Part shown: piece by piece, positions 8,573 through 49,400 of the stretch | How the letters are laid out: every line of letters starts with the position of its first letter | Numbering within the stretch: the first letter of the stretch is position 1 | From: a virus | Lineage: Duplodnaviria > Heunggongvirae > Uroviricota > Caudoviricetes | DNA: 52,506 nucleotides | Virus record (IMG/VR): IMGVR_UViG_2534681604_000014 | Location: 1-52,506 of that record | Direction: 5' to 3' (one strand) | Made by a program: the position numbers and the translations under genes | The notes under the pieces: generated by a model | What the model was told of the DNA's origin: nothing | The model's database searches: none | What the model saw: the letters and a program-made list of their open reading frames with translations, nothing else

Positions 8573-8631
8573 GCGCTACGTAAAATCTGTGAAAAGTTGG
8601 CGGTGTTAGTCCTACAGATTTCGCGTAGCGC
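8573..8631. repeat. 18-bp imperfect inverted repeat (stem-loop) between loxP and the cre-side ORFs
   Basis: GCGCTACGTAAAATCTGT ... ACAGATTTCGCGTAGCGC, one mismatch, 23-nt spacer. Confidence 0.6.
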
Positions 8632-8663
8632 ACTTAGCACCACCAATCAATCAGAGGTGAAAA

Positions 8664-8885: not shown

Positions 8886-8904
8886 CTTGATTATGAGGTG
8901 ATGA

Positions 8905-9300: not shown

Positions 9301-10328
9301 CTAATTCGTTAACCGTTCACCAAAATTTGCCTGCATTGCCGGTCGATGCAACGAGTGATGAGGTTCGCAAGAACCTGATGGATATGTTCAGGGATCGCCA
9401 GGCGTTTTCTGAGCATACCTGGAAAATGCTTCTGTCCGTTTGCCGGTCATGGGCGGCATGGTGCAAGTTGAATAACCGGAAATGGTTTCCGGCAGAACCT
9501 GAAGATGTTCGCGATTATCTTCTATATCTTCAGGCGCGCGGTCTGGCAGTAAAAACTATCCAGCAACATTTGGGCCAGCTAAACATGCTTCATCGTCGGT
9601 CCGGGCTGCCACGACCAAGTGACAGCAATGCTGTTTCACTGGTCATGCGACGGATCCGAAAAGAAAACGTTGATGCCGGTGAACGTGCAAAACAGGCACT
9701 GGCGTTCGAACGCACTGATTTCGACCAGGTTCGTTCACTCATGGAAAATAGCGATCGCTGCCAGGATATACGTAATCTGGCATTTCTGGGGATTGCTTAT
9801 AACACCCTGTTACGTATAGCCGAAATTGCCAGGATCAGGGTTAAAGATATCTCACGTACAGACGGTGGGAGAATGTTAATCCATATTGGCAGAACGAAAA
9901 CGCTGGTTAGTACCGCGGGTGTTGAGAAGGCACTTAGCCTGGGGGTAACTAAACTGGTCGAGCGATGGATTTCTGTCTCTGGTGTGGCTGATGATCCGAA
10001 TAACTACTTGTTTTGCCGTGTCAGAAAAAATGGCGTAGCTGCGCCATCTGACACCAGCCAGCTATCAACTCGCGCCCTGGAAGGGATTTTTGAAGCAACT
10101 CATCGATTGATTTACGGCGCTAAGGATGACTCTGGTCAGAGATACCAGGCCTGGTCTGGACACAGTGCCCGTGTCGGAGCCGCGCGAGATATGGCCCGCG
10201 CCGGAGTTTCAATACCGGAGATCATGCAAGCTGGTGGCTGGACCAACGTAAATATTGTCATGAACTATATCCGTAACCTGGATAGTGAAACAGGGGCAAT
10301 GGTGCGCCTGCTGGAAGATGGCGATTAG
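9297..10328 (+). CDS. cre: Cre tyrosine recombinase
   Basis: 343 aa, near-identical to P1 Cre from residue 6 onward; N-terminus is MTNSL rather than MSNLL. Confidence 0.97.
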   Translation: MTNSLTVHQNLPALPVDATSDEVRKNLMDMFRDRQAFSEHTWKMLLSVCRSWAAWCKLNNRKWFPAEPEDVRDYLLYLQARGLAVKTIQQHLGQLNMLHRRSGLPRPSDSNAVSLVMRRIRKENVDAGERAKQALAFERTDFDQVRSLMENSDRCQDIRNLAFLGIAYNTLLRIAEIARIRVKDISRTDGGRMLIHIGRTKTLVSTAGVEKALSLGVTKLVERWISVSGVADDPNNYLFCRVRKNGVAAPSDTSQLSTRALEGIFEATHRLIYGAKDDSGQRYQAWSGHSARVGAARDMARAGVSIPEIMQAGGWTNVNIVMNYIRNLDSETGAMVRLLEDGD

Positions 10329-10345
10329 CCATTAACGCGTAAATG

Positions 10346-10362
10346 ATTGCTCTAATTCTTTG
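10346..10362 (+). promoter_or_regulatory. C1 operator-like site (core only)
   Basis: ATTGCTCTAATTCTTTG; perfect 11-nt core, divergent 3-prime half. Confidence 0.4.
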
Positions 10363-10378
10363 ATATTTATGGTGACAT

Positions 10379-10690
10379 ATGAGAAAGGATTTCAACATCG
10401 ACGGAAAATATGTAGTGCTGTCTGTAAGCACTAATATTCAGTCGCCAGCCGTCATTGTCACTGTAAAGCTGAGCGATAGAATGCCTGATATTGATTCAAT
10501 ATCCATTGCGTTCCCTGTCAAAAGTATGCGTGGTGCTGAACATTTCGTGATGAATGCCACCGAGGAAGAAGCACGGCGCGGTTTTGCTAAAGTGATGTCT
10601 GAGTTTGGCGAATTTTTGGGGCACGTTGACAAAGCCCTCTCAATCAGTTCAGCAAGGTCCAAAGCGTTAACAGCTTCCATGATGAAATAA
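10379..10690 (+). CDS. hypothetical protein (c8 position)
   Basis: 103-aa ORF between cre and ref. Confidence 0.4.
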   Translation: MRKDFNIDGKYVVLSVSTNIQSPAVIVTVKLSDRMPDIDSISIAFPVKSMRGAEHFVMNATEEEARRGFAKVMSEFGEFLGHVDKALSISSARSKALTASMMK

Positions 10691-32376: not shown

Positions 32377-34054
32377 TATTTAGCTCCTTTGCCACACCTA
32401 ATAACAGTTCCAGCAATCCGTCACCATTCATCAGTGATGCGGCAGCGGCCTCTTTGTCATGATACAACTGAAGAGCCATAGAGAATACTTCCGTTGCTGA
32501 CGTTTTGGAAATAGTCGGTGATTTCTGCCGAATTTTCCCGGAATTACTCACTGAGGCTGACGGGTATACCTTCGCCATATAAATATTACTCAATCGAGAT
32601 CTGAAGCACCATTCGGGCTTGCCACGCCCACCGATATTGACGAAAGATGGCTTATCCCCTTCAACATTGGCCTTCAGGAATGACCTGGCTTTCTCTAACA
32701 GACCAGGGTTACTGTACTCAAGATGATGACCCAGCTCGTGCCACAGTGCACTTGCATTTTTATCGTTCAAATTGACAGCAACAACACCATTAAGATTTGC
32801 ATATGCCCTTCCCTGGTGGTGAACCACCTTTGATAAGGTCGAAATTTTACCGCCGGTCAGGCGATAAATATCAGCAAGTTCCTTGCGCAGGTCTATCCCA
32901 CCATTCTGTCCAGCGCGGGCTTCTTCCACTTCTTCCGTGATAAAAGAGTCGGCCCACTCAAGAGCTTTTTCTTCAGATACGGATGAGTTGGCGATCGCAC
33001 TGTTCATGGCAGATAACACTTTCTCGTGGACCGAACCCATACTTTGCTGATTCATTTGCCAGCGTGTCTGCGGGTTATATGAGAATCGCTTAAGTAGTTG
33101 GTCAAGATGCTCAAGTTCTTCTTCACTGACATACTTTTTAGCCTCACCAATAATGCCAGGGAGAATATTGCCGTTAGGATTAAAGGCTCGCGAAAGGAAG
33201 AGTTTCAGCGCCCCCATGCCCTCCGATGCTTCAATATCACCAATAACCCGGTTAACAATGGCCGCACTCTTCGGATTAGCATCCGCCAACGCCCTGGCTA
33301 CAATTTGCAGGGACGATACGACCTCACGCTGCATATCCGTCCTGATCTCATCAATAAACTCTGGCGTTATGCCGTGCTCTTTAAGGATATCCCTGCCTTC
33401 CGCCGTTACCCCATCGATATCACCGACATGTTTATTAACCCGACTTTGCAATGCCTTAAATGCCTTCAGAATTCCACGGGCATCATCCGCTTTACTAACG
33501 GCCTTCCTGAATGCTGGCAAGAAGTCAGAGTTAACCTCATTTTGTTGATCGGCCCACTGAATGGAGGCTTCTTTCATCTCGTCCAGAGTCAGATCACCCA
33601 ACGCGGTATGGTCTGTGAATATGAGCGACAACCTCTGAACCATTTCTGCCAATGGTGATGCCGAATGCGCCGCGCTAAGGAATGCTTTCACCCTGGTTGG
33701 GCGAATGGAAAACCAGTCAATAGCTGGTGGCATATCTCCGTTTTTTATCGCCTGCGCTATCTCGTCAAAGCCATCGCGCCCAAGGGAGGATGCGTGATTT
33801 AACAAGCCGCGAAGTAACGAATTGCTGATACAGAATAATCGGCACCATTTTTTCACGTCGGCAACAGGCATTCGGACAAAATGCGCAAGCACTTGTACCA
33901 GCTGTTCATCCTGGAGATCTGTGCGGGAAAGCAGCCGGATCAGGTGAATAATATCTTTGATGCCGGATGCCCGATGTAATAACAAGCTGGTATATGGCGC
34001 AACACCGTTGTATCCGCTGCTGGTGGTCATAACTATCTGATCGTTTAAACTCAT
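32366..34054 (-). CDS. dar-operon protein with HExxH metallopeptidase-like motif
   Basis: 562 aa; WHELGHHLEY motif; sits directly downstream of ddrA where P1 has ddrB. Confidence 0.5.
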   Translation of the reverse strand: MSLNDQIVMTTSSGYNGVAPYTSLLLHRASGIKDIIHLIRLLSRTDLQDEQLVQVLAHFVRMPVADVKKWCRLFCISNSLLRGLLNHASSLGRDGFDEIAQAIKNGDMPPAIDWFSIRPTRVKAFLSAAHSASPLAEMVQRLSLIFTDHTALGDLTLDEMKEASIQWADQQNEVNSDFLPAFRKAVSKADDARGILKAFKALQSRVNKHVGDIDGVTAEGRDILKEHGITPEFIDEIRTDMQREVVSSLQIVARALADANPKSAAIVNRVIGDIEASEGMGALKLFLSRAFNPNGNILPGIIGEAKKYVSEEELEHLDQLLKRFSYNPQTRWQMNQQSMGSVHEKVLSAMNSAIANSSVSEEKALEWADSFITEEVEEARAGQNGGIDLRKELADIYRLTGGKISTLSKVVHHQGRAYANLNGVVAVNLNDKNASALWHELGHHLEYSNPGLLEKARSFLKANVEGDKPSFVNIGGRGKPEWCFRSRLSNIYMAKVYPSASVSNSGKIRQKSPTISKTSATEVFSMALQLYHDKEAAAASLMNGDGLLELLLGVAKELNNAD

Positions 34055-34066
34055 CCCTGTTACGCC

Positions 34067-34432
34067 TTATACCGCCTCTTTAATATTGGCGGCTATCCAT
34101 GCCGCCGTGTGCTGTTTAACCTGGTCCAGGTCGATGTATGTGCCAACATATTGACTCAAGTCCTGCAAGGTACCGATAAATGCATCTGTGCTCTGATCGA
34201 CGAATTTATCAGCCAGGAAATCAGCAACCAGTTTTGGCACACCATCATGTACCGAAGGTTGTTTTTCCTCGCCACTACTGCCGCCGGATGCACCGTACCC
34301 CATCTGTTGCATGATCTGGTCAATTTCATCGCTGATATCCAGCAACTCCATGCCACTCGCGGTAGCCGCTTTGGACATCAGAGCATCCAACTTATCGCTG
34401 AGATCCATTAACTCAATAGCTGATAGTGTCAT
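34067..34432 (-). CDS. ddrA: DdrA-like protein
   Basis: 121 aa, immediately downstream of darA with a 4-nt overlap. Confidence 0.55.
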   Translation of the reverse strand: MTLSAIELMDLSDKLDALMSKAATASGMELLDISDEIDQIMQQMGYGASGGSSGEEKQPSVHDGVPKLVADFLADKFVDQSTDAFIGTLQDLSQYVGTYIDLDQVKQHTAAWIAANIKEAV

Positions 34433-36348
34433 GCCGCTACCCCCGCTTTCTGGATTGCTACCAACAGATCAGCCAGGTGGCGAGCTGCGCCGTTAACCAG
34501 CTCTTCGTTTTCCTCAAAACGTCCGGCAGCCTGAAGGGCTGCAATCGCTTCCCGGACATTGCCCCGGGCGTTACGGATCTCCGCCATGTCAGTGCTTTGC
34601 ATATCCATCACGTTATTGAGATATTCAATGGCTTTATTAGCCTCTGCATCTGCTTCGCTAACCGTTTCATCAGGCTGTTCCGGGACCGGTTCTGGTTGAG
34701 TAATCTGACCGACTTCGGCCTGCAATGCATTGATCATGCTCTGCACCATTTTCTCGGTGCCAGCGCCCCCAGGAAACGCAATATTGGGGAAAGTTTTTTG
34801 AAACTGAGTTTTCAGCATTACGCGGAACTCGTCTGGTGAGCTGGTGGCCAGCTCCAGAGCTTTTTGTGCAAATTTGCCAAACGGACCATTAGTAAGTGTC
34901 TTCGCCAGGAAGTCGAAAGAATCCTCGCGAGGCAATAACTTCAGGTCGTACTCACTCATTTGCTGATCAGAAAGCGGGGTATCGTAAGTAGCAATGCCGT
35001 AGCGTGCATATTCATAATACGGGTCACCTTCATCAGGGCGCGGCAGAATTGCTTTGTTACCTTCAGGTATTGCGCCAGGGGCCGCCGGACGCATTTGCAG
35101 GGCATATCGATATGCACCTACAGAGACTTCTGGTTCAGGCGAAGAGCTACCGGTATCCTCCGCTGGTTCAGGCTCGACGTTTTCCGGTTTATGTTCTTCT
35201 GGTTGGACCAGGTATTCCGATACATTACCCGCTTTATAGGCTTTAAACAGCTTGCCGATCGCATCTGCCATGTCCACACCCTGTATGGATTTAGCCTTGA
35301 TCATGTACACGCTGCCATCCGAATCGGTTAACTGGATATACCCTTCGCCATCCCCAATGAATTGCTTCATTGATGCACCATTACTGAGCGTCACTTCCCC
35401 GTTCATATGCATACGATTTTTGATGCTGGCAAGGCGATCCGTCAGCGCGCGAGAGTGCCCACCAGTCATCCCCGCTGGAGCAATGGTATCGCGCCCACCA
35501 GTGCGATTGAGCTGATCAATCTCCGCCTGCAAACGCTCATTTTCTTGATAAAGAGAATCTGCTTCCGAAGCAACCGCGTTAATTTTCTGCTCCAGATCTG
35601 CCTTCTGGCCTTCTACCGCTGCCACCTGATCCGCGAGGTCGCTCATAGCATCCTCTTTCTGGTCACTGTCAGCCTGTAGTTGGGTTATTTCATCAACCAG
35701 GGCTTTTTTCTTCTTCTGCGCACGCTGGAATTTTGCCGAGTTTTTCTCTGCAAGGTTGGCAAGTTTCATGGTGACCTGCGCCAGCGTCATATCACGGCCA
35801 CTCATCGGAGCAACGGTGTGAGTAACGTCTTTTTTATTCAGTAAGAACTGGAAAGCAACCAGCGTATCGCTATTGGTGATCCGGTTTTCCGCTGTCGGGC
35901 TATGAAACAAAATGCTGATAGTCTGACCATCACTGAGCGGAATAATGGCTGGCAGGACCGGCAGACCATTAACGTTACGTGCCCGGCCAATTTCAGCGCC
36001 GCCGATCGCGCGCGCGCCGCTCTGGGCCACATCCCCCGTTTTATCACTCCCCGCAGAGATTCCGGTACCATTCAGCTTCTGGTTCAATGCCCGGACAAAT
36101 GCCTGCATAGTCCGGTGTAACTGCAAACGAGTAGAGCTAATCGCCTCCAGTAAATCCGTAGCACACCAGTGGATCGGCGTGTCATAGAAGAACGTAGCCT
36201 CGATTTCCTCCAGGGTGTTGGATTCCGTCATCAGATAGCGGTCCTCACCGGCCATTAATGCGCGATATTCATCATCAGTCACCGGCGGGGGAAGCACGTC
36301 AAGCCCAGGCTTAATCGTCACCCCTTTATTGATATTGAACTGTTCCAT
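34429..36348 (-). CDS. darA: DarA (packaged anti-restriction protein)
   Basis: 639 aa, size and position match P1 DarA. Confidence 0.75.
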   Translation of the reverse strand: MEQFNINKGVTIKPGLDVLPPPVTDDEYRALMAGEDRYLMTESNTLEEIEATFFYDTPIHWCATDLLEAISSTRLQLHRTMQAFVRALNQKLNGTGISAGSDKTGDVAQSGARAIGGAEIGRARNVNGLPVLPAIIPLSDGQTISILFHSPTAENRITNSDTLVAFQFLLNKKDVTHTVAPMSGRDMTLAQVTMKLANLAEKNSAKFQRAQKKKKALVDEITQLQADSDQKEDAMSDLADQVAAVEGQKADLEQKINAVASEADSLYQENERLQAEIDQLNRTGGRDTIAPAGMTGGHSRALTDRLASIKNRMHMNGEVTLSNGASMKQFIGDGEGYIQLTDSDGSVYMIKAKSIQGVDMADAIGKLFKAYKAGNVSEYLVQPEEHKPENVEPEPAEDTGSSSPEPEVSVGAYRYALQMRPAAPGAIPEGNKAILPRPDEGDPYYEYARYGIATYDTPLSDQQMSEYDLKLLPREDSFDFLAKTLTNGPFGKFAQKALELATSSPDEFRVMLKTQFQKTFPNIAFPGGAGTEKMVQSMINALQAEVGQITQPEPVPEQPDETVSEADAEANKAIEYLNNVMDMQSTDMAEIRNARGNVREAIAALQAAGRFEENEELVNGAARHLADLLVAIQKAGVAA

Positions 36349-36349
36349 G

Positions 36350-36961
36350 TTAATTTCCTGCTTTCAGTTGCTTAAGACGGCGTTTTAGTTCGCCATTTCG
36401 GGCCTTTTCGTTATTGAGTCGGCCCGTCTCCTTATCCAGCTTCGCCCGCAAATCGGTGATCTGCTGTTGATTGAAAGACACCGAGTTCTGCGCGGACTTA
36501 TAAGCGGCAGCCACCTGAGCATTCCTCTGTTTTGCCTCTTGAAGGCGCTGAAAATTGGATTTAACTGCCGGTTTCTTGTCTACCGGATTGGCAACACGTT
36601 TCGCTTTGGCGATCAGTGATTTCTGGAATTTTGCGGAGTTTTTGCGGGCCGCTTGCCCCATGACGGCACCAAGCGTCTTGATATCCGGCGACTGAGCGTT
36701 AGGAATAGCTTTTCCATTCAGTTTCACAGACGATATATCGCCAGTATCGTTTACCTGTATGGCAAGAATTTGTCCGTCGTTAAGAACCAGCTTTGCGGTT
36801 TTAACTTTAACGCCATCTTTCGTTGTTGCGCGGTTGCTGGAGTCAACCTCAATCACCGTCACACCGGTTTTATTGATCGCCGTGATAAGGGATTTCAGCC
36901 CCTTTTCATTAACCTGGTCAAAATCGACCGTTGCATACTTATTTTTCGTCATCTGACACAT
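36350..36961 (-). CDS. hdf: Hdf (head morphogenesis, dar operon)
   Basis: 203-aa ORF immediately upstream of darA. Confidence 0.6.
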   Translation of the reverse strand: MCQMTKNKYATVDFDQVNEKGLKSLITAINKTGVTVIEVDSSNRATTKDGVKVKTAKLVLNDGQILAIQVNDTGDISSVKLNGKAIPNAQSPDIKTLGAVMGQAARKNSAKFQKSLIAKAKRVANPVDKKPAVKSNFQRLQEAKQRNAQVAAAYKSAQNSVSFNQQQITDLRAKLDKETGRLNNEKARNGELKRRLKQLKAGN

Positions 36962-37382
36962 CCTGTGCGAGATTTATTACGTAACTTCTGCGGATTTGCT
37001 GAGTAACAGGGAAAATCCGATACAACGGGTTAATGAACGAGTCGCCATGCGTAACCATGACGTTGAAATGCCACAGCCGTTCTCCTTTACCCATATATTC
37101 AGTGGGTATGTATAACCATTCGCTGTTTTCGCCCTGTTCAGCCGATGTCAGACAACGTTGCTCGCCTTCAATCACTGTCGTCGGCTTCTGAACATCGCGG
37201 ATCCAATACCTGACCGTTGCGCCGCGCAAAAAAGGAAATTTGGACCGGTATTTGAACGGCACCCGGATGAAGCCCGGTTTAATTTCCACTTCACCAAGCT
37301 CTAAATTCGTGATGTCCTTGCGTTTTAGCAAATAGCGATCGGCTAAGGCTAACGCAAGAGCGCATACACCCCAGCCAATCAT
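36939..37382 (-). CDS. lydB: LydB antiholin
   Basis: 147-aa ORF downstream of lydA with a 4-nt overlap. Confidence 0.6.
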   Translation of the reverse strand: MIGWGVCALALALADRYLLKRKDITNLELGEVEIKPGFIRVPFKYRSKFPFLRGATVRYWIRDVQKPTTVIEGEQRCLTSAEQGENSEWLYIPTEYMGKGERLWHFNVMVTHGDSFINPLYRIFPVTQQIRRSYVINLAQDVSDDEK

Positions 37383-37708
37383 TTCCCGCCTCCCTTTTTC
37401 ACCAAACTTGTAAGAACATTCAGAATGCTATCGATATTCACTCGTTTCATCCCTGAAATCACCTCATGACCGTTATTGCTGGCTATCGTTACCATTAAGT
37501 ACGTAATTGATAACTCCCAGCCCTCGTGTTGCCCCAATAGGTACGCCACCGCGCCAGCTGTCACTGCAACAAAGATCTCCGTAACCAATCCCAACAAATT
37601 GCCAGACTGGCGACCGTCTCGGACATCCATCAGGAACGTGCCTATCCCACCAATTACTGAAAGCAGGAGCGCAATAGCAACTGGAGCTAATTCCTGTGTG
37701 TCAAGCAC
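37379..37708 (-). CDS. lydA: LydA holin
   Basis: 109 aa with hydrophobic transmembrane segments and a basic C-terminus. Confidence 0.65.
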   Translation of the reverse strand: MLDTQELAPVAIALLLSVIGGIGTFLMDVRDGRQSGNLLGLVTEIFVAVTAGAVAYLLGQHEGWELSITYLMVTIASNNGHEVISGMKRVNIDSILNVLTSLVKKGGGK

Positions 37709-37775
37709 AAGTTCCCTCCTACGTTGTCAGGAGGTAATGGTATGCAAAGTAACTTCTCAACCGGTCATTTGTTGC

Positions 37776-38126
37776 TTAAGAGGCATTTCTATTGAGGTAC
37801 GAATCGATAAGCCTTTGTAACCTTTCAAGAATGAGCCTGTGATTGACGCTGCAAATAAGAATCACGCAATTCTGAAGGCTTTCATCCATCCCCTTATATT
37901 CCGCGAAATACATGCCTATAAAGCCTGCAAGTACGGCGGAAATACACTCGGCCAACAATTGCCTGCATGACGCTTCGTAACGTTTTTCACGAACCCCATT
38001 CAGAAACGAATTCACTCCGCCAAAGATAGATATAAATAAAATTGTTAAGTCAAACATAAAAACCTTGCCAATTTTGAGTTGAACATCATTGGGGAACGGT
38101 ATGCACTTTGTGATTTCCACACACAC
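37776..38126 (-). CDS. small membrane protein (holin-like)
   Basis: 116-aa ORF with hydrophobic segments; first gene of the lyd/dar operon. Confidence 0.4.
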   Translation of the reverse strand: MCVEITKCIPFPNDVQLKIGKVFMFDLTILFISIFGGVNSFLNGVREKRYEASCRQLLAECISAVLAGFIGMYFAEYKGMDESLQNCVILICSVNHRLILERLQRLIDSYLNRNAS

Positions 38127-38184
38127 TGGTTTTTGTTAATTAAAATCCGCAGCTTGCTATAAATAACGATAGTGAGCAGAAAAT

Positions 38185-38424
38185 ATGCTAATAGGCTATG
38201 TACGCGTATCAACAAATGAACAAAACACTGCTTTGCAACGAAATGCCCTTAAAAGCGCAGGATGTGAGCTAATTTTTGAGGATAAGGCGAGCGGCAAAAA
38301 GGCTGAACGCCCTGGGTTAAAAAAGGTTCTGCGTATGCTTTCCAGAGGTGACACCCTGGTCGTATGGAAGTTAGAGCGTCTTGGGCGCAGCATACGTCAC
38401 TTGGTTGTGCTGGTGGAAGATTGA
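38185..38424 (+). pseudogene. cin: truncated cin invertase (N-terminal 79 aa only)
   Basis: MLIGYVRVSTNEQNT...DTLVVWKLERLGRS is the catalytic N-terminus of a Hin/Gin/Cin serine invertase; ends after about 79 of about 186 aa, so the DNA-binding C-domain is missing. Confidence 0.8.
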
Positions 38425-38660
38425 AAAGTTAGCAGTTATCACAGCTACCCGATCACTATCCGGAGCAATGAAGAAGATAGCGAGAATGGAAGAAAACACC
38501 TAACAATTTGATACATGATATTTTTACACGAAGAGCGAAACTCCTTTTGCAGGAAATGGTCGCAATTACCTTTATGATGAAGGGTTGTCAACAGTTATTC
38601 TATTTTTTATAATCCACAAAAAACAATTCAGGGTATTTTATATAAAAGTCAAGGCAACAT

Positions 38661-39203
38661 ATGGATATTGATTTTCTTAAAGAGTGTCTCCTAGTTGAAG
38701 TTATTGGTGGGGGTAATAAACAATTCTCATGGCCTCGCGCCATTCGCCATGCCTGGCGGCAACCTAAACGCAGGTTTCTTTTTTGGTGGCGTATAGCATC
38801 TTATCTATATGATATGGACAACAAATATCTAAAAAAACTCGGAAAGAAAATTAACAGAAATTTATCCTTTAAATACAATACTGATATTGAACTTGGAGCA
38901 TCAATAGCTCCTGGATTATATATTGGACATTATAGTGGTATTGTTATTACAAGATATGCAACGATTGGTAGAAATTTTAATATAAGGCAAAACACAACTA
39001 TTGGTTTAAAAAATTCTAACACTAACAGAGTTACTATTGGAGATAATGTTAATATTGGAGCAAACTCCTGTATAATCTCAGACCACATCACTATAGGTGA
39101 TAATGTAAAAATAGGGGCTTTTACCTTTGTAAATAAAGATATACCTTCAAATTCAACTTATTACACCAAGAAAATCAATATATGCAAGGAAAGGGAGGCG
39201 TAG
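38661..39203 (+). CDS. hexapeptide-repeat O-acetyltransferase
   Basis: 180 aa; left-handed beta-helix hexapeptide repeats; GC content clearly lower than flanking sequence. Confidence 0.75.
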   Translation: MDIDFLKECLLVEVIGGGNKQFSWPRAIRHAWRQPKRRFLFWWRIASYLYDMDNKYLKKLGKKINRNLSFKYNTDIELGASIAPGLYIGHYSGIVITRYATIGRNFNIRQNTTIGLKNSNTNRVTIGDNVNIGANSCIISDHITIGDNVKIGAFTFVNKDIPSNSTYYTKKINICKEREA

Positions 39204-39224
39204 CCCCCCCTTCTTTACTATTTG

Positions 39225-39620
39225 ATATGAATCGGTATAGGTTCTGGCGACAAATTCAGCCGCATGAATATGTGAGGCGGTATTAACCTGATAGGTGTCT
39301 TCTCCAAGAAGGTATCTTCCCTTCAGCACAATTGCATATTTTTTGCCTGCACTAAGTGCAAGGGAGATATCCTTACGGTGTTGAATAGTTACCTGATAGA
39401 ATTCGCCAATAACCACTGACGCCGCGCCAGCGGTTTTATCACCATCCAGTGAGGTGATTAACAGGTTCATCCCACCGCCAGGCTTCGGCAGGAAACCGGC
39501 ATAAAATCCTGGATCAACAATTCCCCTGAATTTTCGGTTTAGCGCGGCTGACAGATATGGTTCGTGGTATTGCACATCAGCCACCAGAGCCAGTGACTCG
39601 GGCGATGGGTAAGTAACTGA
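39225..39620 (-). pseudogene. orphan 5-prime fragment of tail-fibre gene S (codons about 10-140)
   Basis: About 88-90 percent nucleotide identity to 42843-43241; lacks the S start codon region and diverges after ...TYTDSYQ. Confidence 0.8.
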
Positions 39621-39718
39621 TTAAACTCAACATCACAATTTTCCTATGGTGTATCTGACGGTTCGTCGGGATCTATTTTTGCGAGCGGGGTTTACTGGAT
39701 AGCAATTGGATACTAATT

Positions 39719-40144
39719 ATGAAAGAAGAGAACATTTATTATTATAGTGCTGAAAACAATGCATTTTATCCATTAGTTCTAAAACCTGATTATGAGGATG
39801 CAGGAACTTGGCCTTCTGACGCTGTTCCTATATCTCACTCATGGTATACGCAGTTGTTAGAGCAACAGGCAAATGGACAAGTCATTAAACCGAATGAATA
39901 TGGACAACCTGTTCTTACCGATCCTCCGCCCCCTTCAGTTGAAGATTTAAAACGACAGGCGGAAAACATTAAGGTACAACTCCTTGCTGAGGCTGAATCT
40001 GCCATATTACCGCTGGAACGAGCCGTCAGACTGAATATGGCAACAGATGAGGAACGTATAAGACTTGAGTCATGGGAACGCTACAGCGTTCTGGTCAGTC
40101 GTGTGGATACTACAAATCCTGAATGGCCTGATAAACCGGAGTAA
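39719..40144 (+). CDS. tail fibre assembly chaperone (U-prime-like)
   Basis: 141 aa; convergent with U; no tail-fibre ORF upstream of it. Confidence 0.65.
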
Positions 40145-40152
40145 GCTTATAG

Positions 40153-40175
40153 GGCAGGCTGAGCCTGCCTTTCTT
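40153..40175 (+). terminator. stem-loop between convergent tail fibre assembly genes
   Basis: GGCAGG-CTGAG-CCTGCC followed by TTTCTT. Confidence 0.5.
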
Positions 40176-40184
40176 ATTCACACA

Positions 40185-40709
40185 TCACACGTCAGGTGAT
40201 ACGGGCCATTCAATTGTATTGTAAGTCTGCTCATCGGTTATTCCGATAAAATCCATAGACTCTAAACTCTGGATATACAACATCCAGTTAAGTAACTTTT
40301 CTTTATCGCTTTCACTTATTATTCCAAGAGACAGATATGTCTTCCAGTTTGAGACTCTGCTTTCGGCCTCCACAAGTAACTCTTTGCGTTTACTTTCAGC
40401 TTTCTCTGTATAATTAACAGGGATTGGCTTTATTTCATTTTCATCGAAATACCAACCTTTATTTATATCGAAATCCTCCGGCAAATAATCTGTTTCCACA
40501 ACACTGAAACCATTAGGAAATAGTCTGGAAACATCCTCTGAAATAGAGTGAATCACTCCGGTAACTGGATGCACACAAAATTTGTATTTTTTTGTGAATT
40601 TGTCTAATGATTCATAAAAATCTTGACCATCTTCACTTTGAAAATACTGTACCCCTTCACCATATGGCATGTCATCGGGATAATATCGTGAAATATTTTT
40701 TAGTTCCAT
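40185..40709 (-). CDS. U: tail fibre assembly protein U
   Basis: 174 aa from ATG 40709 (MELKNISRYY...), directly downstream of S. Confidence 0.65.
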   Translation of the reverse strand: MELKNISRYYPDDMPYGEGVQYFQSEDGQDFYESLDKFTKKYKFCVHPVTGVIHSISEDVSRLFPNGFSVVETDYLPEDFDINKGWYFDENEIKPIPVNYTEKAESKRKELLVEAESRVSNWKTYLSLGIISESDKEKLLNWMLYIQSLESMDFIGITDEQTYNTIEWPVSPDV

Positions 40710-40719
40710 TCCTGACTCT

Positions 40720-43263
40720 CTATCCGGTAATTGTTCGCCATGCACCATTAATATAAATCTGTATGGGTTTATATTTAATGAAGTCCATTTTATCGCCACC
40801 ATCAACGAATGTTACAACACAACCAGCCGGAGCAGTTGTTGCATGTTGCACTTCCGCTCCTAATTGAATATTTTGTATATATCTCGAATCAAAATTACCA
40901 TAATCAGTGGGCGTCACTCTGCCTGTGACATTGATTGGCTTATTACTTTGGAGTGCTCCTGGCTGGAAACGGAATACATGCTGGCTATTTGCATAAACAT
41001 CAAGAATGCCATCACCGTTCTGTTTAAAGCCCGTGTCATTATCGCCTAAAACGATAGAGTTTCCGCCGAGAGCGTTCGCTACCCCCAGTCCAACGCCACC
41101 ATTAATTACAGCCCCATTATTAATATCAACGCCATTTCCAAGCGCCACTCGCCCTGTGTCATTTCTAAACGAAAACGGGCGCAAGCTATTCCATCCACCA
41201 AGCTGATCACCTGATGCTGTAACTAATAAATATGTTAATGAGCCGTCATTTCGAAGGAATACTCCGTAATTTCCGTATACGGCACGGAATGCATTTGCAG
41301 TCCTGGAAACCACCTCGCCATTAACACTCATTGTAATAGAGTTATCAGTGTTTCTCTGGCTGTAAAAGTGATATCCCTTCTCATCTTTTAATTCAATAAC
41401 CGTTGGCCTTGATGAACTACCCCATATTTGCATATAAGTATTCAGTGACAGAGTTTCAGTAGTCTGCACCCTGAACACTTTCCCGTTTGAATTTTGAAAA
41501 CCAAGTGGTCCGGTTAAAGTTCCTCCGGTTAATTTCAAAAAGAGCGCATCAATCCAGCCCTCAAATCCAGCTTTCTTGATATACAGGTTGCCATCATTCG
41601 CCAGAATGCCACCACCTGGCGTTCTTAATGGTTGCGATATATTAGCCAAAGTCAGCAATCCCGTCATTGAATCGCCATCCCGACTGAAATCGCGTCTCCA
41701 TCCTGGCGCATAAGCGTCACCGTGGTTGATGTAGGTAAACTGAGCCTTGACAGTTCCACCATTGGTTGCCGTCGTAGGGGTAGTGATGCGAATCGTCATA
41801 GCACCCCGAACCCCCATAACCTCAACTACAGCGCCAGAAAGTTGTATATTCCCACAACCGGTATCCGTGATGATTTTATTGGCAGCGTAAGCCCAGGAGC
41901 CTTTGCACATCCAGTATGGATGATTGAACGCCCCTTGAGACTCCAGCCACTCGATAAATTGCGCCGTCGTCCAGTTATTGCTGTCTCCTCCGATGCTGAT
42001 ATTGCCGCTGGCAGCTTTTGCTGCACCAATATTTCTGACAAATAAATTTTTGTCGGGAATATCTGCGCCGTTCTGGTTTTTCTGCAATGCGCCAGACGCC
42101 AGGTTGACTGATTCTCCTAAACCAAGGTATTGGATAATGGCCTGGGTACTACTTTTAGCAAGAATATCCCGTCCAACTGGCGTCAAATCAGTCTGAGCAA
42201 CAGTATCTTTTCCTGTAAAGTAAGGAAGTTTATTTGCACCTGTTGGTAAACCAGCCAAAGCAGTTAACGTCGCATCCAAAGGCTGTTTACCTGCCAGGGC
42301 ATTTGTCATCGTGGTAGCAAAGTTCGGATCATTGCCAAGCGCCTCAGCTAACTCATTCAGAGTATCCAGAGCTTCAGGCGATGAACCGACCAATGCAGAT
42401 ATAGCAGCTCTTACATAAGCGGTTGTAGCAATCTGCGTATTGTTCGTACCCTGTGCCGCAGTAGGCGCGGTTGGCGTTCCTGTCAGACTCGGGCTTTCTA
42501 TTGGCGCTTTGGTATCAGCAAGATCTTTTACAGACTTAACGGCTTTAGGGGTCGCCGCCATTGTTTCGCTGTCGCTGTTAGTTTCGCTACTGAGCTGAAC
42601 TAATCCCTTTTGCGTTGTGCTTGCATCCTGCGCCGTATACTTGCTTTTCGCCAGATCGTAGGCTTTTTTAACCGCCAGCGAACTTGCAGCAACATCACTT
42701 CTGGTACTGGTTACAGAGTCTGAAATATCAATGCCGATCGTACGGTTGATACGCTCGGATGTATCAATCATCTCCTGGGTAATGGCAGATACACCAGCAG
42801 GAATATTCACCGTACAAACAAGCAGCTCTCCATCTCCTAACTGATATGAATCGGTATAGGTTCTGGCAATAAATTCAGCCGCATAAATATGTGACGCTGT
42901 ATTAACCTGATAGGTATCTTCTCCAAGGAGGTATCTTCCCTTTAGCACAATTGCATATTTCTTACCTGCGCTAAGTGCAAGAGAAATATCCTTACGATGC
43001 TGAATAGTTACCTGGTAGAATTCACCAATATCCACTGACGCTGCGCCAGCAGTTTTATCACCATCCACTGAGGTGATTAACAGGTTCATCCCACCACCAG
43101 GCTTAGGTAAGAAACCGGCATAAAATCCAGGATCAACAATTCCCCTGAATTTTCGGTTTAGCGCGGCTGACAGATATGGTTCGTGGTATTGCACATCAGC
43201 CACCAGAGCCAACGACTCGGGTGATGGGTAAGTAACCGATGTGACAACTGTAACGTCATTCAT
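40720..43263 (-). CDS. S: tail fibre protein S
   Basis: 847 aa from ATG 43263 (MNDVTVVTSVTYPSPESLALVADVQYHEPYL...), RBS AAGGA upstream; the 40720..43350 ORF-track start is rejected. Confidence 0.85.
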   Translation of the reverse strand: MNDVTVVTSVTYPSPESLALVADVQYHEPYLSAALNRKFRGIVDPGFYAGFLPKPGGGMNLLITSVDGDKTAGAASVDIGEFYQVTIQHRKDISLALSAGKKYAIVLKGRYLLGEDTYQVNTASHIYAAEFIARTYTDSYQLGDGELLVCTVNIPAGVSAITQEMIDTSERINRTIGIDISDSVTSTRSDVAASSLAVKKAYDLAKSKYTAQDASTTQKGLVQLSSETNSDSETMAATPKAVKSVKDLADTKAPIESPSLTGTPTAPTAAQGTNNTQIATTAYVRAAISALVGSSPEALDTLNELAEALGNDPNFATTMTNALAGKQPLDATLTALAGLPTGANKLPYFTGKDTVAQTDLTPVGRDILAKSSTQAIIQYLGLGESVNLASGALQKNQNGADIPDKNLFVRNIGAAKAASGNISIGGDSNNWTTAQFIEWLESQGAFNHPYWMCKGSWAYAANKIITDTGCGNIQLSGAVVEVMGVRGAMTIRITTPTTATNGGTVKAQFTYINHGDAYAPGWRRDFSRDGDSMTGLLTLANISQPLRTPGGGILANDGNLYIKKAGFEGWIDALFLKLTGGTLTGPLGFQNSNGKVFRVQTTETLSLNTYMQIWGSSSRPTVIELKDEKGYHFYSQRNTDNSITMSVNGEVVSRTANAFRAVYGNYGVFLRNDGSLTYLLVTASGDQLGGWNSLRPFSFRNDTGRVALGNGVDINNGAVINGGVGLGVANALGGNSIVLGDNDTGFKQNGDGILDVYANSQHVFRFQPGALQSNKPINVTGRVTPTDYGNFDSRYIQNIQLGAEVQHATTAPAGCVVTFVDGGDKMDFIKYKPIQIYINGAWRTITG
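42843..43241. repeat. direct repeat copy (5-prime end of S) matching 39225-39620
   Basis: Same-orientation homology of about 395 bp, with a run identical over about 70 bp (43141-43210 and 39520-39591). Confidence 0.8.
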
Positions 43264-43274
43264 CAAGCATATCC

Positions 43275-43709
43275 TTATGCTGTAGTCGTGTTTATGGCCA
43301 TAACTGCGGTATATGTTTTGCCCACATACAGCGAGTCTTCCTGGACACAAATAATGGCGATTGGCTTGTTCTCGTTATCCAGAACAACCAGAGTGTTGAA
43401 TGGGTAGTTTTTCCCTTCCTGCAACTGGCTTTGATCAAGGTCCATTCGGACAGTAATTATCCCACCTGAGTAGGTTGGCACGAGGTTGATGGTGCAAAAT
43501 TGACTGGTTAGTTCTGCCAGATCGAAAGCCTTTGGCAGTTCTCCAATCTCATAAGTGCCATCTCCTTTCTTAGTAACCAGCGAACTGGTACCGAAAACGG
43601 CCTTGCTGATTAAAAATCGAGAGCCTTTGTTAATGGACGATTCAGCGCGCCGCTGATAGTAATAGTCCAACAACTGACTCTTATAGAGGTTTGTTGAGAC
43701 GTCAGACAT
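43275..43709 (-). CDS. R: tail fibre structural protein R
   Basis: 144-aa ORF immediately upstream of S. Confidence 0.6.
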   Translation of the reverse strand: MSDVSTNLYKSQLLDYYYQRRAESSINKGSRFLISKAVFGTSSLVTKKGDGTYEIGELPKAFDLAELTSQFCTINLVPTYSGGIITVRMDLDQSQLQEGKNYPFNTLVVLDNENKPIAIICVQEDSLYVGKTYTAVMAINTTTA

Positions 43710-43787
43710 GATTTTCCCTAATCAATGTTGTGAAGCCTCATTGTAAGATAAGTAACTTGTCACCCCGCCCTACGGACGGGGTGATTG

Positions 43788-44627
43788 TCAGGCGTCGCTA
43801 TCCAGCAACAAATCATCTGCGCGTGTGCGATCAAACGTAGGTGTCGCTTTCACAATAGTGCCACCAGGCGTTGCGGTGATCGGGGCGCTAATCGACGTAA
43901 CTCCAGTAAGCGAAGTTGTATCCGAAGTTTCAAACCAGCAGAATGCTTTTTCGGTATCAGAAATCTCGTTCAAAGTGATCATGTCGGCCTGTTCATTTAC
44001 AACAACCGACAAATAGAGCGTAAGCCCATCAAACACTATATGCAGTGGCAGTAGAGGCTTTACGAACTGATTAAACTTTCTGAGAATTTCTTCTGTAATT
44101 GCAGACTGATCTATCGTGCCAGTAATACCCATTGTCCTGGCCAGGTCGTTTATGGGAATACTGATCATCCCTCTGGAAGTCAGAAACATCTCGCCGAATG
44201 TGCCGCCGGTAGTCTCCAGTGTGCTTTCTGGTATTAGAACTGTGCCATAGGGATGACGCTCAAGGTCCACCGGTGCATATATCGGATCCCATAAAACAGA
44301 AATACCGTTAAATTCGCGGTAAATTGTCTGGTTTATAGGACGTTCAGTTCCCTTAAAGTGGATCTCATCAAGCCGCTGTTGTAACAACATCGGAACGGAA
44401 GATGAGTTCGAGGTTCTGATAGTAAAGAACTGGCCAAGTTCATTTGTCCTGGTCTCCAGATCCTCCTTGCTCATGGAGAAAATAGACTTCCGGTTGGTAA
44501 TTCGCTCCAACCATGGGTCAACAAAGGTGTCCATCATTGACTGAACCAAATCAGCCAATGATTTATAGAGCAATGACTTTTGCTTAGCTGATGTAAGCCG
44601 GTTATTAAACCAGGAACGCTGCATCAC
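43788..44627 (-). CDS. baseplate/tail morphogenesis protein
   Basis: 279 aa; 4-nt overlap with the upstream gene. Confidence 0.55.
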   Translation of the reverse strand: MMQRSWFNNRLTSAKQKSLLYKSLADLVQSMMDTFVDPWLERITNRKSIFSMSKEDLETRTNELGQFFTIRTSNSSSVPMLLQQRLDEIHFKGTERPINQTIYREFNGISVLWDPIYAPVDLERHPYGTVLIPESTLETTGGTFGEMFLTSRGMISIPINDLARTMGITGTIDQSAITEEILRKFNQFVKPLLPLHIVFDGLTLYLSVVVNEQADMITLNEISDTEKAFCWFETSDTTSLTGVTSISAPITATPGGTIVKATPTFDRTRADDLLLDSDA

Positions 44628-46057
44628 TCCTCCTCATACGAAATATTAAAGGTGGAGTTTTCTGTATCCAGATAAACGAAATCGTAAAAGCCGTTGGACT
44701 CATTCCACTCGACAAATTCCAGATAAAAAGTCGCGGAAATAACCCAGCGTTTCGATAAACGCCCAAACGTCTTTTTCTTAATCAGGATGTACTTTCCGAC
44801 GCGGTTCGGATCAAAGAAAGTTGAGTCGCGCCCAAATTTTGTTTCCAGTGCCGACTTCAGCTCATCGGTCACATTCTCAATGGTCAGGCTTGCCGATATC
44901 CGTCCGGTGATGGTTATCTTAAATGGTAGTTTTCTGACCTCTTTATAAGAGAATTTCTTGTTCAACTCATTCGGCACCTTCTTAAAGGCAGCCAGGATCA
45001 TTTCTTCAAGCTCTGACTGGCTTTTATTTGGATGCCATCCTGAAATAAATATCTTATTGATATTCTGAACATTATAAGCACCATCTAATTTCTCTTGCTG
45101 GCCTTCGCCCCATGCCTTTACCCAGGACAGTCCCGGGATGTTACGCACCAGAAAATACGTATAGTCCCCGCCCCATACGACCTGATCATCATAGGCAAGG
45201 TAATATTGTGCACGGTTACGTGTGATCTCCGTTGTTTCGGCATCGGTACCGGCGGTTATAGGTGTCGTTGTCTTAACTGAAATCGAGTTGGCTAAATTAG
45301 CCGCAGAATCGACAGGCGTCAGGTTTTGGCCAGCAACAAGGGTTATATCTCCGTTGGTGCACCATACCTTAAGTGTAATGGTCGAGCCTTCTGGCGGTAT
45401 TTGCCCAATTAGCCCATCACCGAATCGAACCCCCAACTGCTCGGATGGTTTATAAAACTCAACGTAGACCTGGCTTTTACTACCGGCTAACCGGAACATA
45501 GTGCTGGAAGACCACTGCGTGGTCTTACCATCGGTCGTCACGAATACTTCCAGCTTATAGCAGACAGCAGTGAGAGCCTTTGATAACACGACTTCCAGAA
45601 ATTCTTTGGCTGCCGTAACGGTATATGTCACCTCCTGGATTTCCAACTGTGCCACTTCTACCGTACCGGTGCCGTCAACCAACCTGCATACATCCATAGT
45701 CATGTAAGGGTACTGGTCGTCAGATATTAAAGGCATGTTTTTGGGGATTACCGCTGGGGCATCTTCACTTGTGGCGGTGATCTCAATCATCCCCGATGAC
45801 GGTGTTGGCTTGGTACCAACGTAACTATTCGTTTCTGCCGCTGCCAGGATAGAGGAACGCCGCGTCGCGGTCGATATAAAGCCTTCAGCCAGCGCCGCAT
45901 CGGCATACTGAAAGCACCTGTAGACAATCTGGGTAATAAACAATGTCAGCATCGAGACAAATTGAGAGCCGACAAACTTCGACCAGAATGAATCTTTCTC
46001 GACAAGCTCTTCAAACTCTGCACGAATACTGTCTTTAGTCGGTGTTGTTTTACTCAT
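44624..46057 (-). CDS. baseplate J-like protein
   Basis: 477 aa; operon position between the gp25-like gene and the tail fibre genes. Confidence 0.55.
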   Translation of the reverse strand: MSKTTPTKDSIRAEFEELVEKDSFWSKFVGSQFVSMLTLFITQIVYRCFQYADAALAEGFISTATRRSSILAAAETNSYVGTKPTPSSGMIEITATSEDAPAVIPKNMPLISDDQYPYMTMDVCRLVDGTGTVEVAQLEIQEVTYTVTAAKEFLEVVLSKALTAVCYKLEVFVTTDGKTTQWSSSTMFRLAGSKSQVYVEFYKPSEQLGVRFGDGLIGQIPPEGSTITLKVWCTNGDITLVAGQNLTPVDSAANLANSISVKTTTPITAGTDAETTEITRNRAQYYLAYDDQVVWGGDYTYFLVRNIPGLSWVKAWGEGQQEKLDGAYNVQNINKIFISGWHPNKSQSELEEMILAAFKKVPNELNKKFSYKEVRKLPFKITITGRISASLTIENVTDELKSALETKFGRDSTFFDPNRVGKYILIKKKTFGRLSKRWVISATFYLEFVEWNESNGFYDFVYLDTENSTFNISYEEE

Positions 46058-46413
46058 AGCACCACGTCCTGTGTGATAGTTATATCCCTGATACGAATGG
46101 ATATTTTCAACTTATCAAAAGCATCTCCCTCGGCTACTGACAAGCCAGAAATCGGTATGTCAGGTAAATCTACCGTCAGTTTTTGCAACAGCATTGCCTC
46201 AACCGCAATTTGAACATGCGACAAGTTGGTCGGTTCGTGTTTAAACTGCGGTAAAACATTGCCCCATGACGGATCTCCGTATACCTCACCCTGATAAGTG
46301 TTTAGCCACTCATATAAACGAGCGCCCCAGGCCTCCTCCTGGGACTCATACGTTTTTACGCCGGATAACTCCAGCGTCAGCAAAGGATCAATTTCGTTAT
46401 TGTTGGCCATCAA
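46054..46413 (-). CDS. small baseplate protein (gp25/GPW-like)
   Basis: 119 aa; 4-nt overlaps with both neighbours. Confidence 0.45.
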   Translation of the reverse strand: MMANNNEIDPLLTLELSGVKTYESQEEAWGARLYEWLNTYQGEVYGDPSWGNVLPQFKHEPTNLSHVQIAVEAMLLQKLTVDLPDIPISGLSVAEGDAFDKLKISIRIRDITITQDVVL

Positions 46414-49400
46414 TCAACTCTCGCGTAGTCATTCATCAACGGATCATCAATTGACAGTGGTACCGTGCGCATAACGCCCGGCTGAGGCGTGCTGACCTTT
46501 ACGACAGTTCCCTGGCCTTTCGCCGAGTCTTTGGTGTGCTCTTCAATCCTGGCAAGCAATGAGGTCATCTGCGCAAACAGCCGCTTCGTTTCACCATCAA
46601 GTGAAACGGTATTATCAGCCAACTGCATTGTCGGCTTGGCACCGGAACCGCCAAGGTCACTAATAACCTGCCCGTCTATCTGCATACGACCAGTTGGTTG
46701 CTGCAAATCGTTGACGGCAGTCGTCACCTGGGACGTGGAGGCTGGTTGAGGAGAATTATTTGAGCGCATTCCCCGGGCATTAATGAGTTTGTCATACAGC
46801 CCATCAATCCCCATTTGTGCACCGAGTTGGTCAAAGTAACTTGAGTTGTTTGCTACCGGACGTGCCTCTTCAACTGGCATAGGTGTATCAACATACACAT
46901 TGCCAGCAGCCGTTGCGGTCCCCTTCCCTCGTGCACGTTCTTCGAGCGTTCCCTGAACGACTTCCCGACGCATCCCCCGGCCATTCATGAATTTGTTGAC
47001 CAGATCGTTAACGCCAACAGTATTGCCGATTTTGTCTACCAGACCGCCCTTCTCAAACGGACTATCACCAGGGGTAAACGCCAGACCAGTAGACTGATCG
47101 ATAACGGCGTTATCAGGCAGTGCCCCCCTTATTCCATATTGCGCTCCACCCTGTGCTCCTGCTCCAGGTGTATAGATTTCACCACCTAAATAGCGAGCAC
47201 GATGAGTATTGACCTTGATCGCATACTCACGGTTTTCCTTCGATAAGTCACCTGTGCCTTTTTTCCAGTTGTTAATAGTCCTAAAACCAGCGTTATATGC
47301 GGTGATGGCCTCGTTCCAATCTCCCTTTGCTTGTTTCAAATACTTGCTCATGAGAAGAGCAGCAGCTTCTGCCGATTTTTCCGGATTAAACGAATCTTCC
47401 CGGGATAATCCAGTTTCCTTACGAGCAATGTCCGTAAACTGAAACATTCCTAGCGCACCAGTTTGAGATTTTGCATACGGATTGCCATTAGATTCAGTAG
47501 CTGCAATAGAATGAAGAGTGCCTTCTGGAAGACCATATTTATTCTCTAGTTCAGCAAAATACGGAGCCAACTTATCGAGATTTGCCTTACCTTCAGCGCC
47601 AAGACTTCCGACTTTCACATCCAAGTTGCCATTGTTGTAGGTATCCGCAGCTTTCTGAATGTCATTCCTGGTGCCAGTGGTATTAAGCGATGATGATGAC
47701 GAGCTATTTTGACCAATAGCATTATCAATTTTCTGCAACGCGCTATTGCCCGTTTCTACGGCATTTGCATTGATAATCTGATTAGCAGTTTCTTTAACTG
47801 TTTTATTGCTATCTTTCGCCATATCCAGGGCCGCATTTATCACGCGGGCAGCAATATTAGTCTGTTTGGCATTAGATTTAGTTTTAGAATCAGATGTCCC
47901 CTGGTGGCTATTAACCGGAGTTTTTAACTCTGGCGTGATTTCTTTTGCATTAGCCTCGCCGATCGGATTGGGTATTTTTGATACAATCATTGCCGCAGGG
48001 GTATTTTTAACGGCATCAACCGCTGCATCTAATGCTTTACCGGGTAAATTTTTAACCCCATTCCAAATATTACCAGCCGCCTCTTTAATGTGTTTCCCTG
48101 GGTTCTTAATGAAATCAATTTCACTATCAATTGCATCACTGAAAACCTGTTTCAGGTTATCGACAGTAAAGAAGTCTTTGATGGCATCCAGCTTTTCAAG
48201 CAGCTTATTAGATGTATCGCTAAACCATGCTGAAACAGCATCACCAATCTTTGCTGTATAATCATCGAACTTGGTAGAAATGGTGTCGCCAAGGTTAGAA
48301 ATATATGTTTCTAAGTTGGTAATCCCACTATCAATGGCCTGGGCAATACTTTCCGTCGAAAATGATTGCAACATATTGCCGATCTCCTCAAATCCAAGTG
48401 ATTTGAGAACCTCACCAATGGCACTGCTAATGCCAGATACCAGTCCTCCCATATCGAGAACGTTAGCCAGTGTATAAGCCGCTTTTTGCTGAAAAGATGG
48501 GTCTTCCCCACCCTTAAGCCCAAAGATCCGGCGTTGCGCTTCTGTATCATTCCAACCGGTTACCGCATCATAAATACCTCCAGCCACTGTGCCGACTAGG
48601 GGAATTGCACGTAACGCCCCTTTACCAACAGCCTTTAACCCCAGTTTACCAGCTGCCCGGGCAGCCAAATCTCCGCCTTCATGGGCGAGAGTCTTCTTGC
48701 CACCACCGCGTAGCATTCCTACAAGTTTCTTTACCCCCAGAGCGCCAAAAGCGAGTGCTCCAGCTTTTTTCAGCATGCCACGCCCCATTAACAACGACGC
48801 GACGCCACCGGCCCCCTTCCCTAACAGGCTAAATAGTTTGGACAGCAAGCCGCCCTTCTTTTTCCCGGTGTTTTTGGCTATCTGATCAAGGGCGCTGAGA
48901 ATCTTGTCATTGCCCTCTTTAATTTCGCTGGTCTGCTCCTGAAGTTCCTGAACCGTCCGTTTTTGGGTGTTAACCTGAACGACATCGGCACTATTTTGCG
49001 ATTTACGCCTAAAAAAACCTTTTCTACGGCTGTTATCGTCATTGCCACGAATCACATCGGCAATAGACTTTCTGGCACCATTAAGCGATCCACCAACTTC
49101 TTTTGATATCCCGCCAAGCTCCTTCCCTGCAGCCCACAATGGGCCAGCCACGGCATAACCTAACGCATCGACGGCACGAGTCTCTGAAGGGTTTCCTATG
49201 CCTTCAGCTACTTTTGACAGTTTTTTTAATAAACCTGATTCAGCATTTAGACGCTCATCATCCTCTTTTCGCCTGGCCTTTTCTGCTCGTTCAGCACGGG
49301 CATCTTCCGCTGCGGCCTTACTCCCTGACTTTCCAATAAAACGACCACGCGCATCTCGTTGGTTTTGGCTTTTTTGCGCACCGCCTTTTTGACCGAACAT

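Follow-up and report, generated by a model that had tools for sequence, protein, structure and literature searches.

The window, i.e. the whole stretch of 52,506 nucleotides analysed here, is a P1-like phage-plasmid. Its tail-fibre locus carries, from left to right, lydC, a truncated copy of the invertase gene (cin'), an acetyltransferase gene, an orphan fragment of the tail-fibre gene S, the end of Sv', U', U, S, R and, on the minus strand, gp16. The features of the locus, with the evidence used to define them, are reported in Table 1. U' is intact and has no cognate Sv' fibre end; since the acetyltransferase gene lies upstream of it and has the same orientation, read-through might still provide for its transcription. 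In the annotation of NZ_CP099330.1 the Sv' stop codon is found 2 nt ahead of U'. Tandem repeats inside S were considered as an explanation for the repeated sequences described below and set aside, only a trivial 18-bp array being present.

Table 1. Features of the tail-fibre locus. Positions refer to the window; the strand and the supporting evidence are reported for each feature.
Feature	Positions	Strand	Evidence
lydC			upstream of the cin fragment
Truncated cin, codons 1-79	38185..38424	+	Pfam Resolvase N-terminal domain; tblastn with P1 Cin, 95% identical
Foreign low-GC cassette	38421..39222	+	29-39% GC; 94.5% identity to pPSS-10_3 over 38183-39227
Promoter-like site for acetyltransferase	38585..38613	+	scan, 11/12 match
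Hexapeptide-repeat acetyltransferase, 180 aa	38661..39203	+	Pfam Hexapep; phrog_2154 over full length
Strong hairpin just downstream of orphan	39194..39210	-	terminator scan; fold energy
Orphan S fragment, equivalent to S nt 24-422	39223..39621	-	alignment; same boundaries against 8 S alleles
Last 95 bp of Sv' (31 codons + stop)	39622..39716	+	homology to p18B226LT3 and NZ_CP099330.1
U', intact tail-fibre assembly chaperone	39719..40144	+	Pfam Caudo_TAP, E = 4e-28; phrog_188
U, tail-fibre assembly gene serving S	40185..40709	-	Pfam Caudo_TAP; 174-aa gene calls in relatives
S, tail fibre, 847 aa (ATG at 43263, stop at 40720)	40720..43263	-	Phage_fiber_2 and Gp34_trimer domains in window-identical contig
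Remaining cix site, inside S	42115..42134		1 mismatch to P1 cixR; identical to p18B226LT3 cixR
Resident copy of repeat, inside functional S	42842..43240	-	92.5% identity to orphan, 82-bp perfect run
R, tail fibre upstream of S	43275..43709	-	PF26881 Phage_P1_tail_fiber_R in window-identical contig

Alignment of 39223-39621 with 42842-43240, by MAFFT and BLAST, defines a direct repeat of 399 bp, free of gaps and with 30 mismatches (E = 5e-169). A repeat search of the window returned a core pair at 39218-39517 and 42837-43136, also ungapped, with 91% identity. Both copies lie on the minus strand, in the gene sense, with a start-to-start distance of 3619 bp. When numbered from the S start codon, the repeat spans codons 9-141. 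BLAST analysis of the region 36000-46000 showed no repeat besides the orphan/resident pair, and no third copy was found by BLAST in the window. An earlier, sequence-only reading of this DNA had estimated about 395 bp shared in the same orientation, at 88-90% identity, with an identical run of about 70 bp; the alignment proved slightly better than this estimate, and it bears out the description of the orphan as a direct duplicate of the S 5' region. The same reading had the first nine codons and the start codon missing from the orphan: the start codon is indeed absent, and the codons that are missing are 1-8, Ser9 being the first complete one.

The closest intact relative of the locus is E. fergusonii p18B226LT3, which carries cin, cixL, Sv', U', U, S and R. 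Window positions 37400-38420 correspond to p18B226LT3 3185-4205 with 99.5% identity, and positions 39622-44000 to 6001-10379 with 96.3% identity (both in L005 numbering). Between these two segments, about 1.8 kb of p18B226LT3, consisting of the 3' two-thirds of cin, cixL and all of Sv' minus its last 95 bp, are replaced in the window by 1.2 kb, composed of the low-GC acetyltransferase cassette followed by S codons 9-141. At the left junction, homology to the cassette ends at about 39222, and from 39223 onward the sequence is homologous to S; at the right junction, S homology extends to 39621 and Sv' homology starts exactly at 39622, i.e. at position 6001 of p18B226LT3 (L005 numbering) and 6825 of NZ_CP099330.1 (L006 numbering). 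In the junction alignments, strict microhomology amounts to about 1 bp or less at each orphan junction. Both ends of the orphan are abrupt illegitimate junctions, and the proposal of a past recombination, made from the letters alone, is supported. A rearrangement mediated by an insertion sequence or transposon was rejected, as no IS was seen in the region examined and none is annotated in the corresponding region of the relatives.

The left part of the replacement was found in E. coli pPSS-10_3 (NZ_AP027688.1), which aligns with window positions 38183-39227 and shares the identical cin truncation point. There the acetyltransferase gene is convergent with tfa, which is followed by a tail-fibre relic. 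The five nucleotides at 39218-39222 of the window match the stop-codon end of the pPSS-10_3 tfa, an assembly gene of the donor type. The relic of pPSS-10_3 is a tail-fibre pseudogene (NZ_AP027688.1, 87118-87771); it lacks the N-terminus and is located between tfa and the functional fibre gene, so that a separate lineage also has a relic at this locus. The D6-like lineage, represented by pPSS-10_3 and CP099330, was discarded as a source of the orphan, since the 5' ends of its S genes have no nucleotide similarity to it.

The orphan starts at S nucleotide 24 and ends after codon 141, so that, compared with full-length homologues, it is cut at both ends, with homology lost sharply. An in-frame TAA lies directly upstream of it and closes the frame; there is no ATG, and the only in-frame starts are internal GTGs. 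An open reading frame covering the orphan runs from a GTG at 39584 to 39153; its last 24 or so codons are unrelated to S and extend antisense into the acetyltransferase gene. The translation matches the PHROG tail-fibre families phrog_454 and phrog_2631, and a 140-aa ORF over the orphan is annotated by gene callers in some assemblies. A consensus scan detected no minus-strand promoter-like site upstream of the orphan, and no Shine-Dalgarno sequence was evident by eye ahead of its GTGs. The GC content of the orphan is 47-50%, vs 29-39% for the cassette. Judged by these features, the orphan is most likely a non-coding, unexpressed relic, and the ORF of 140-143 aa is best annotated as a pseudogene fragment. 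The orphan is not mentioned in PMC6906374 or PMC9603915.

None of the curated NCBIfam cutoffs is reached by the acetyltransferase, its closest families being EpsC/CysE/WcaB-like. Homologues are found in the same tail-fibre locus of the P1-like phages JL22 and Ro157c2YLVW (52% amino acid identity) and close to the termini of records of P2-like ESSI2 phages; Citrobacter phage phiNP has one as well (82%). The gene may be a surface-polysaccharide-modifying moron tied to tail-fibre modules. The GC content of the region 38585-39203, from the promoter-like site to the end of the gene, is 29-37%. The hairpin at 39194-39210 has a predicted folding energy of -22.5 kcal/mol (z = -3.9) when read on the minus strand, vs -13.9 kcal/mol (z = -1.0) on the plus strand; the minus-strand structure is probably the terminator of the donor tail-fibre operon.

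The state of the Cin/cix inversion system was also analyzed. Only Cin residues 1-79 are detected in the window by tblastn and Pfam, vs about 186 aa for a complete invertase, and homology to the intact cin of p18B226LT3 stops at 38420. No second cix site, or cixL-like partner, was found window-wide at up to 5 mismatches, and no inverted repeat longer than 25 nt was found in the region 36000-46000, nor any by BLAST. Sv-U is intact; of Sv', 95 bp are left beside the intact U'. Four features of a C-segment were tested, i.e. a complete invertase, two inverted cix sites, inverted repeats, and two fibre 3' ends with their chaperones, and the locus has none of the four. The switch for host-range inversion was destroyed, and other DNA took its place. 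The tail-fibre configuration is locked, as Cin is absent, cix is present only once and U' has no partner.

The orphan and its resident counterpart had been related by the sequence-only reading to the inverted repeats of the P1 C-segment. This connection was not confirmed: the inverted repeat of the p18B226LT3 C-segment maps to window positions 40888-42135 (90.8%, inverted), within Sv and next to cix, not at the S 5' end, and the annotation of P1 places Sc, the constant part of the fibre gene, outside the invertible segment. The past inversion that was proposed along with it is contradicted by a Cin cut after codon 79, by the single cix site and by the absence of any cix-like site at either orphan junction. 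A Cin-mediated event at a quasi-cix site was also considered, and rejected. The sequence TTAAAC at the right junction resembles a cix half-site, but it derives from the Sv' side; moreover, the break falls outside the expected cix crossover, and neither the region of codon 9 in the resident S nor the left junction contains a cix-like sequence.

In order to trace the origin of the orphan allele, its differences from the resident copy were classified by codon position and compared with eight S alleles (resident, U2501, p18B226LT3, RCS47, pB2-L, P1, phi456 and JL22). Third codon positions account for 24 of the 30 differences, and 24 of the 28 differing codons are synonymous. Thirteen substitutions are private to the orphan with respect to the eight alleles; 11 of them fall at third positions, and two sites change the amino acid. 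The best database match to the orphan, in plasmid U2501, reaches 95.5% identity. An orphan-specific 29-mer had no match in genome, viral or metagenome contigs, and an exact 28-mer of the left junction, used to look for the predicted deletion product or for this junction in other contexts, had none in metagenome and genome contigs. A protein search with the orphan translation returned only four short or partial S N-termini, none of them carrying Leu58 and Val70, the residues specific to the orphan. Neither the source allele nor an intermediate of the type cin'-acetyltransferase-tfa-S, with S of the orphan type, was found in the collections searched.

The pattern of substitutions identifies the orphan as a foreign S allele that diverged under purifying selection, and not as a copy of the resident gene. 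Judged by this pattern, the allele appears to have evolved as a working gene in an unsampled P1-like lineage, and to have been truncated recently. The orphan is accordingly best read, with a probability of roughly 0.83, as a non-coding scar that stems from the S gene of a different P1-like phage and was left by recombination that swapped the inversion switch for the acetyltransferase cassette.

It may be asked if a local duplication or inversion in this genome could have placed a second version of the resident S 5' end next to the C-segment, where it then decayed. The two copies are only 3.6 kb apart, have the same orientation and share an 82-bp identical run, in a locus that formerly held an invertase. 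A local copy would, however, be expected to represent the same allele and to diverge no more than its flanks, and this is not what was found. The orphan is 7.5% diverged, and the flanks are 96.3-99.5% identical to p18B226LT3 and 98-100% among the carriers of the arrangement, which leaves no time for a drift of this size. The quality of the differences also argues against local copying, 80% of them being at third positions, with 24 of 28 codons synonymous, as in functional evolution and not in pseudogene decay. The 13 private substitutions, the position of P1 Sc outside the invertible segment and junctions that are not cix-like point the same way. Local duplication or inversion is thus largely refuted, and we regard it as very improbable; the duplication seen by the sequence-only reading does not stand in the sense of local copying of the resident gene.

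The distribution of the arrangement was examined in other genomes. The window is 100% identical, over positions 33000-47000, to scaffold GL870861.1 (GCA_000190495.1). The same arrangement was found in five finished plasmids, four from E. fergusonii and one from E. coli. In the assembly collection, 146 indexed blocks contain a protein identical to the acetyltransferase, and the order acetyltransferase-orphan-U'-U was confirmed in all ten contigs read from NCBI and ENA assemblies. Across 10 further contigs or records, one of which is identical to the window, the orphan shows 0-1 mismatches; the resident S 5' copy differs from that of the window by 0-20 mismatches across carriers. The resident copies of the other carriers are still 26-31 mismatches away from the orphan, and gene conversion between the two copies, of which there is no sign, was therefore discarded.

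Segment by segment comparison was performed on the nine carriers that are not identical to the window, mostly from E. fergusonii where the host is known. The block from cin' to U' (38185-40144), including acetyltransferase, orphan and Sv' end, is 98-100% identical to the window, with values of 99.2-100% except for one cassette at 98.1%. Identity is 88% for lydC and 94% for U in most of the nine carriers, 92-93% for Sv, again in most of them, and between 92.5 and 100% for the resident repeat; most of the nine thus carry other alleles of lydC, U and Sv than the window. The non-coding DNA adjoining the orphan is conserved as strongly as the orphan itself. A block that is nearly invariant, within flanks that are mosaic, indicates that the scar block had a single origin and was carried unchanged during homologous reshuffling. 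Selection, as opposed to a recent origin, could in theory explain why the carriers differ so little in the orphan, but its non-coding surroundings are no less conserved.

Some carriers and relatives differ in other respects. In the E. fergusonii plasmid CP099329.1, homology to the window stops inside the 3' end of S, at the equivalent of position 40826, and RdgC and replication-type genes are found in place of S, R and gp16; the orphan is thus the only S 5' sequence in that neighbourhood, as no local resident copy is present. E. fergusonii RHB44-C21 hosts two P1-like plasmids of different replicon types (NZ_CP099329.1 and NZ_CP099330.1), in which a U'/U/Sv module is common to both at 96-98% identity. 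Recombination between plasmids, as proposed here, would find a natural setting in this pair. Among otherwise similar carriers the length of S is 807, 847 or 921 aa, which points to internal segments having been gained or lost within the constant part, for example the repeated elements a/b annotated in P1. A ddrB-like gene, located upstream of window position 36348, encodes 425 aa in some carriers, including the window-identical contig, 562 aa in two carriers and 995 aa in others, suggesting internal deletion in the Dar anti-restriction operon.

A function for the orphan was considered in several forms: an antisense RNA to the S mRNA, or a transcript driving U'; a GTG-initiated S fragment of 143 aa; or a deliberate deletion switch. 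A strong plus-strand promoter-like site is found upstream of the acetyltransferase gene and the plus-strand hairpin is weak, so that antisense read-through across the orphan is conceivable; the transcript would have an 82-nt perfect match to the resident S. The orphan is also kept in all carriers, and an ORF of 140-143 aa is called by some pipelines. Conservation of the orphan, however, is no higher than that of the adjoining non-coding DNA. There is neither an ATG, nor a minus-strand promoter-like site, nor an evident Shine-Dalgarno sequence at the GTGs, and the tail of the ORF is unrelated to S and antisense into the acetyltransferase gene. S belongs to the late genes and is controlled separately, and no deletion variant was found in the 11 carrier sequences examined. 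A functional orphan is on the whole very improbable. Slightly less probable still is that it has been kept for use, either through constitutive read-through from the acetyltransferase promoter, in antisense damping of S (over the first 400 nt, 82 of them perfectly matched) or in feeding U', or else as a low-frequency deletion switch; the positive evidence for this is limited to a plausible path of read-through; if the last were true, the switch would give a fibre-less, plasmid-only element. An assembly artefact, produced by mis-joined reads of two co-resident P1-like plasmids, is conceivable in principle, as the RHB44-C21 plasmids share the U'/U/Sv module, but its chances are negligible, identical junctions being present in five complete plasmids and also in NCBI and ENA contigs that were obtained independently, each sample being a different one.

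The reading of the orphan as the scar of a foreign S allele can be translated into a series of events. In the ancestor, with its P1-type backbone, cin'-acetyltransferase would have faced tfa-S-R in convergent orientation. S codons 1-141 would be what remained after an illegitimate deletion that began at the end of tfa and reached S codon 141. A functional S-U-U' module from a phage similar to p18B226LT3 would then have been joined in, by one homologous crossover upstream (in R, gp16 or the start of S) and one illegitimate join that linked S codon 9 with the 3' end of Sv'. The events may equally well have occurred in the reverse order, and any order is conjecture.

The two copies formally provide the substrate for deletion that the sequence-only reading had pointed out. 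RecA-mediated recombination between them would delete 3619 bp, including U', U and S from codon 141 on, and would leave a product of about 165 aa, made of S residues 1-141 and a short tail; such a product would not provide tail fibres. In E. coli recombination, a perfect block of 82 bp exceeds the minimal processing segment, but recombination should be much less frequent at a divergence of 7.5%. Loss of the DNA between the copies would be a rare event, and the 3619-bp deletion product was not seen in the 11 carrier sequences examined.

The locus offers a concrete case of a P1-like lineage losing its programmable host-range switch, with cin', S codons 9-141 and the Sv' end as relics, and the host range of these phages should be fixed. 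The dead block of 2 kb is a useful lineage marker and an example of combined illegitimate and homologous recombination. It is of use mainly to annotation and to the study of evolutionary history, and leaves the understanding of P1 biology as it was.

The obvious reference for the locus is the P1 C-segment with its Cin/cix switch, homologous to the G segment/Gin system of Mu. As in P1, lydC, cin, Sv', U', U, S and R are found at the locus, a cixR site is retained inside S with 1 mismatch, and U' and the Sv' end are the remnants of the alternative arm. Unlike in P1, Cin is cut after residue 79, deletion has removed cixL and almost the whole of Sv', and there are no inverted repeats; the repeat studied here has direct orientation and belongs to the constant 5' part of S, a part that the invertible segment of P1 does not include.

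A truncated cin and an incomplete C-segment have been described in the P1-like plasmids pSvP1, pTZ20_1P and pJIE250-3 (Venturini et al. 2019, PMC6906374). The window shares with them a remnant of the N-terminal catalytic part of the invertase, an altered tail-fibre operon and the presumed loss of switching (PMC6906374). Most of the damage in pSvP1, pTZ20_1P and pJIE250-3 was caused by IS elements and includes large deletions, whereas no IS was seen in the examined region of the window, where the gap is filled by the acetyltransferase cassette and the S 5' fragment, and the S-U-R operon is intact.

The stretch lydC-cin-Sv'-U'-U-S is a hypervariable region of P1-like phage-plasmids (PMC9603915). 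In JL22 a replacement in region 3, sacF-tfa-stf, with a gene for a 'serine acetyltransferase', is described (PMC9603915). JL22 and the window both have a hexapeptide 'serine acetyltransferase' convergent with a tail-fibre assembly gene in a tail-fibre locus of the P1 type; the JL22 enzyme, however, is only about 52% identical, its gene is placed between U and tfa, and the JL22 annotation has no orphan S 5' fragment. The closest parallel is pPSS-10_3, which has the same cin truncation point, the same cassette (94.5% nucleotide identity) and a tail-fibre relic beside tfa. It differs in that the cassette is followed by an intact tfa and a different tail-fibre gene, with no S 5' orphan and with an S 5' end unrelated at the nucleotide level. 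Seen next to these systems, the orphan adds a further relic, of a type already described, to a known tail-fibre hot spot.
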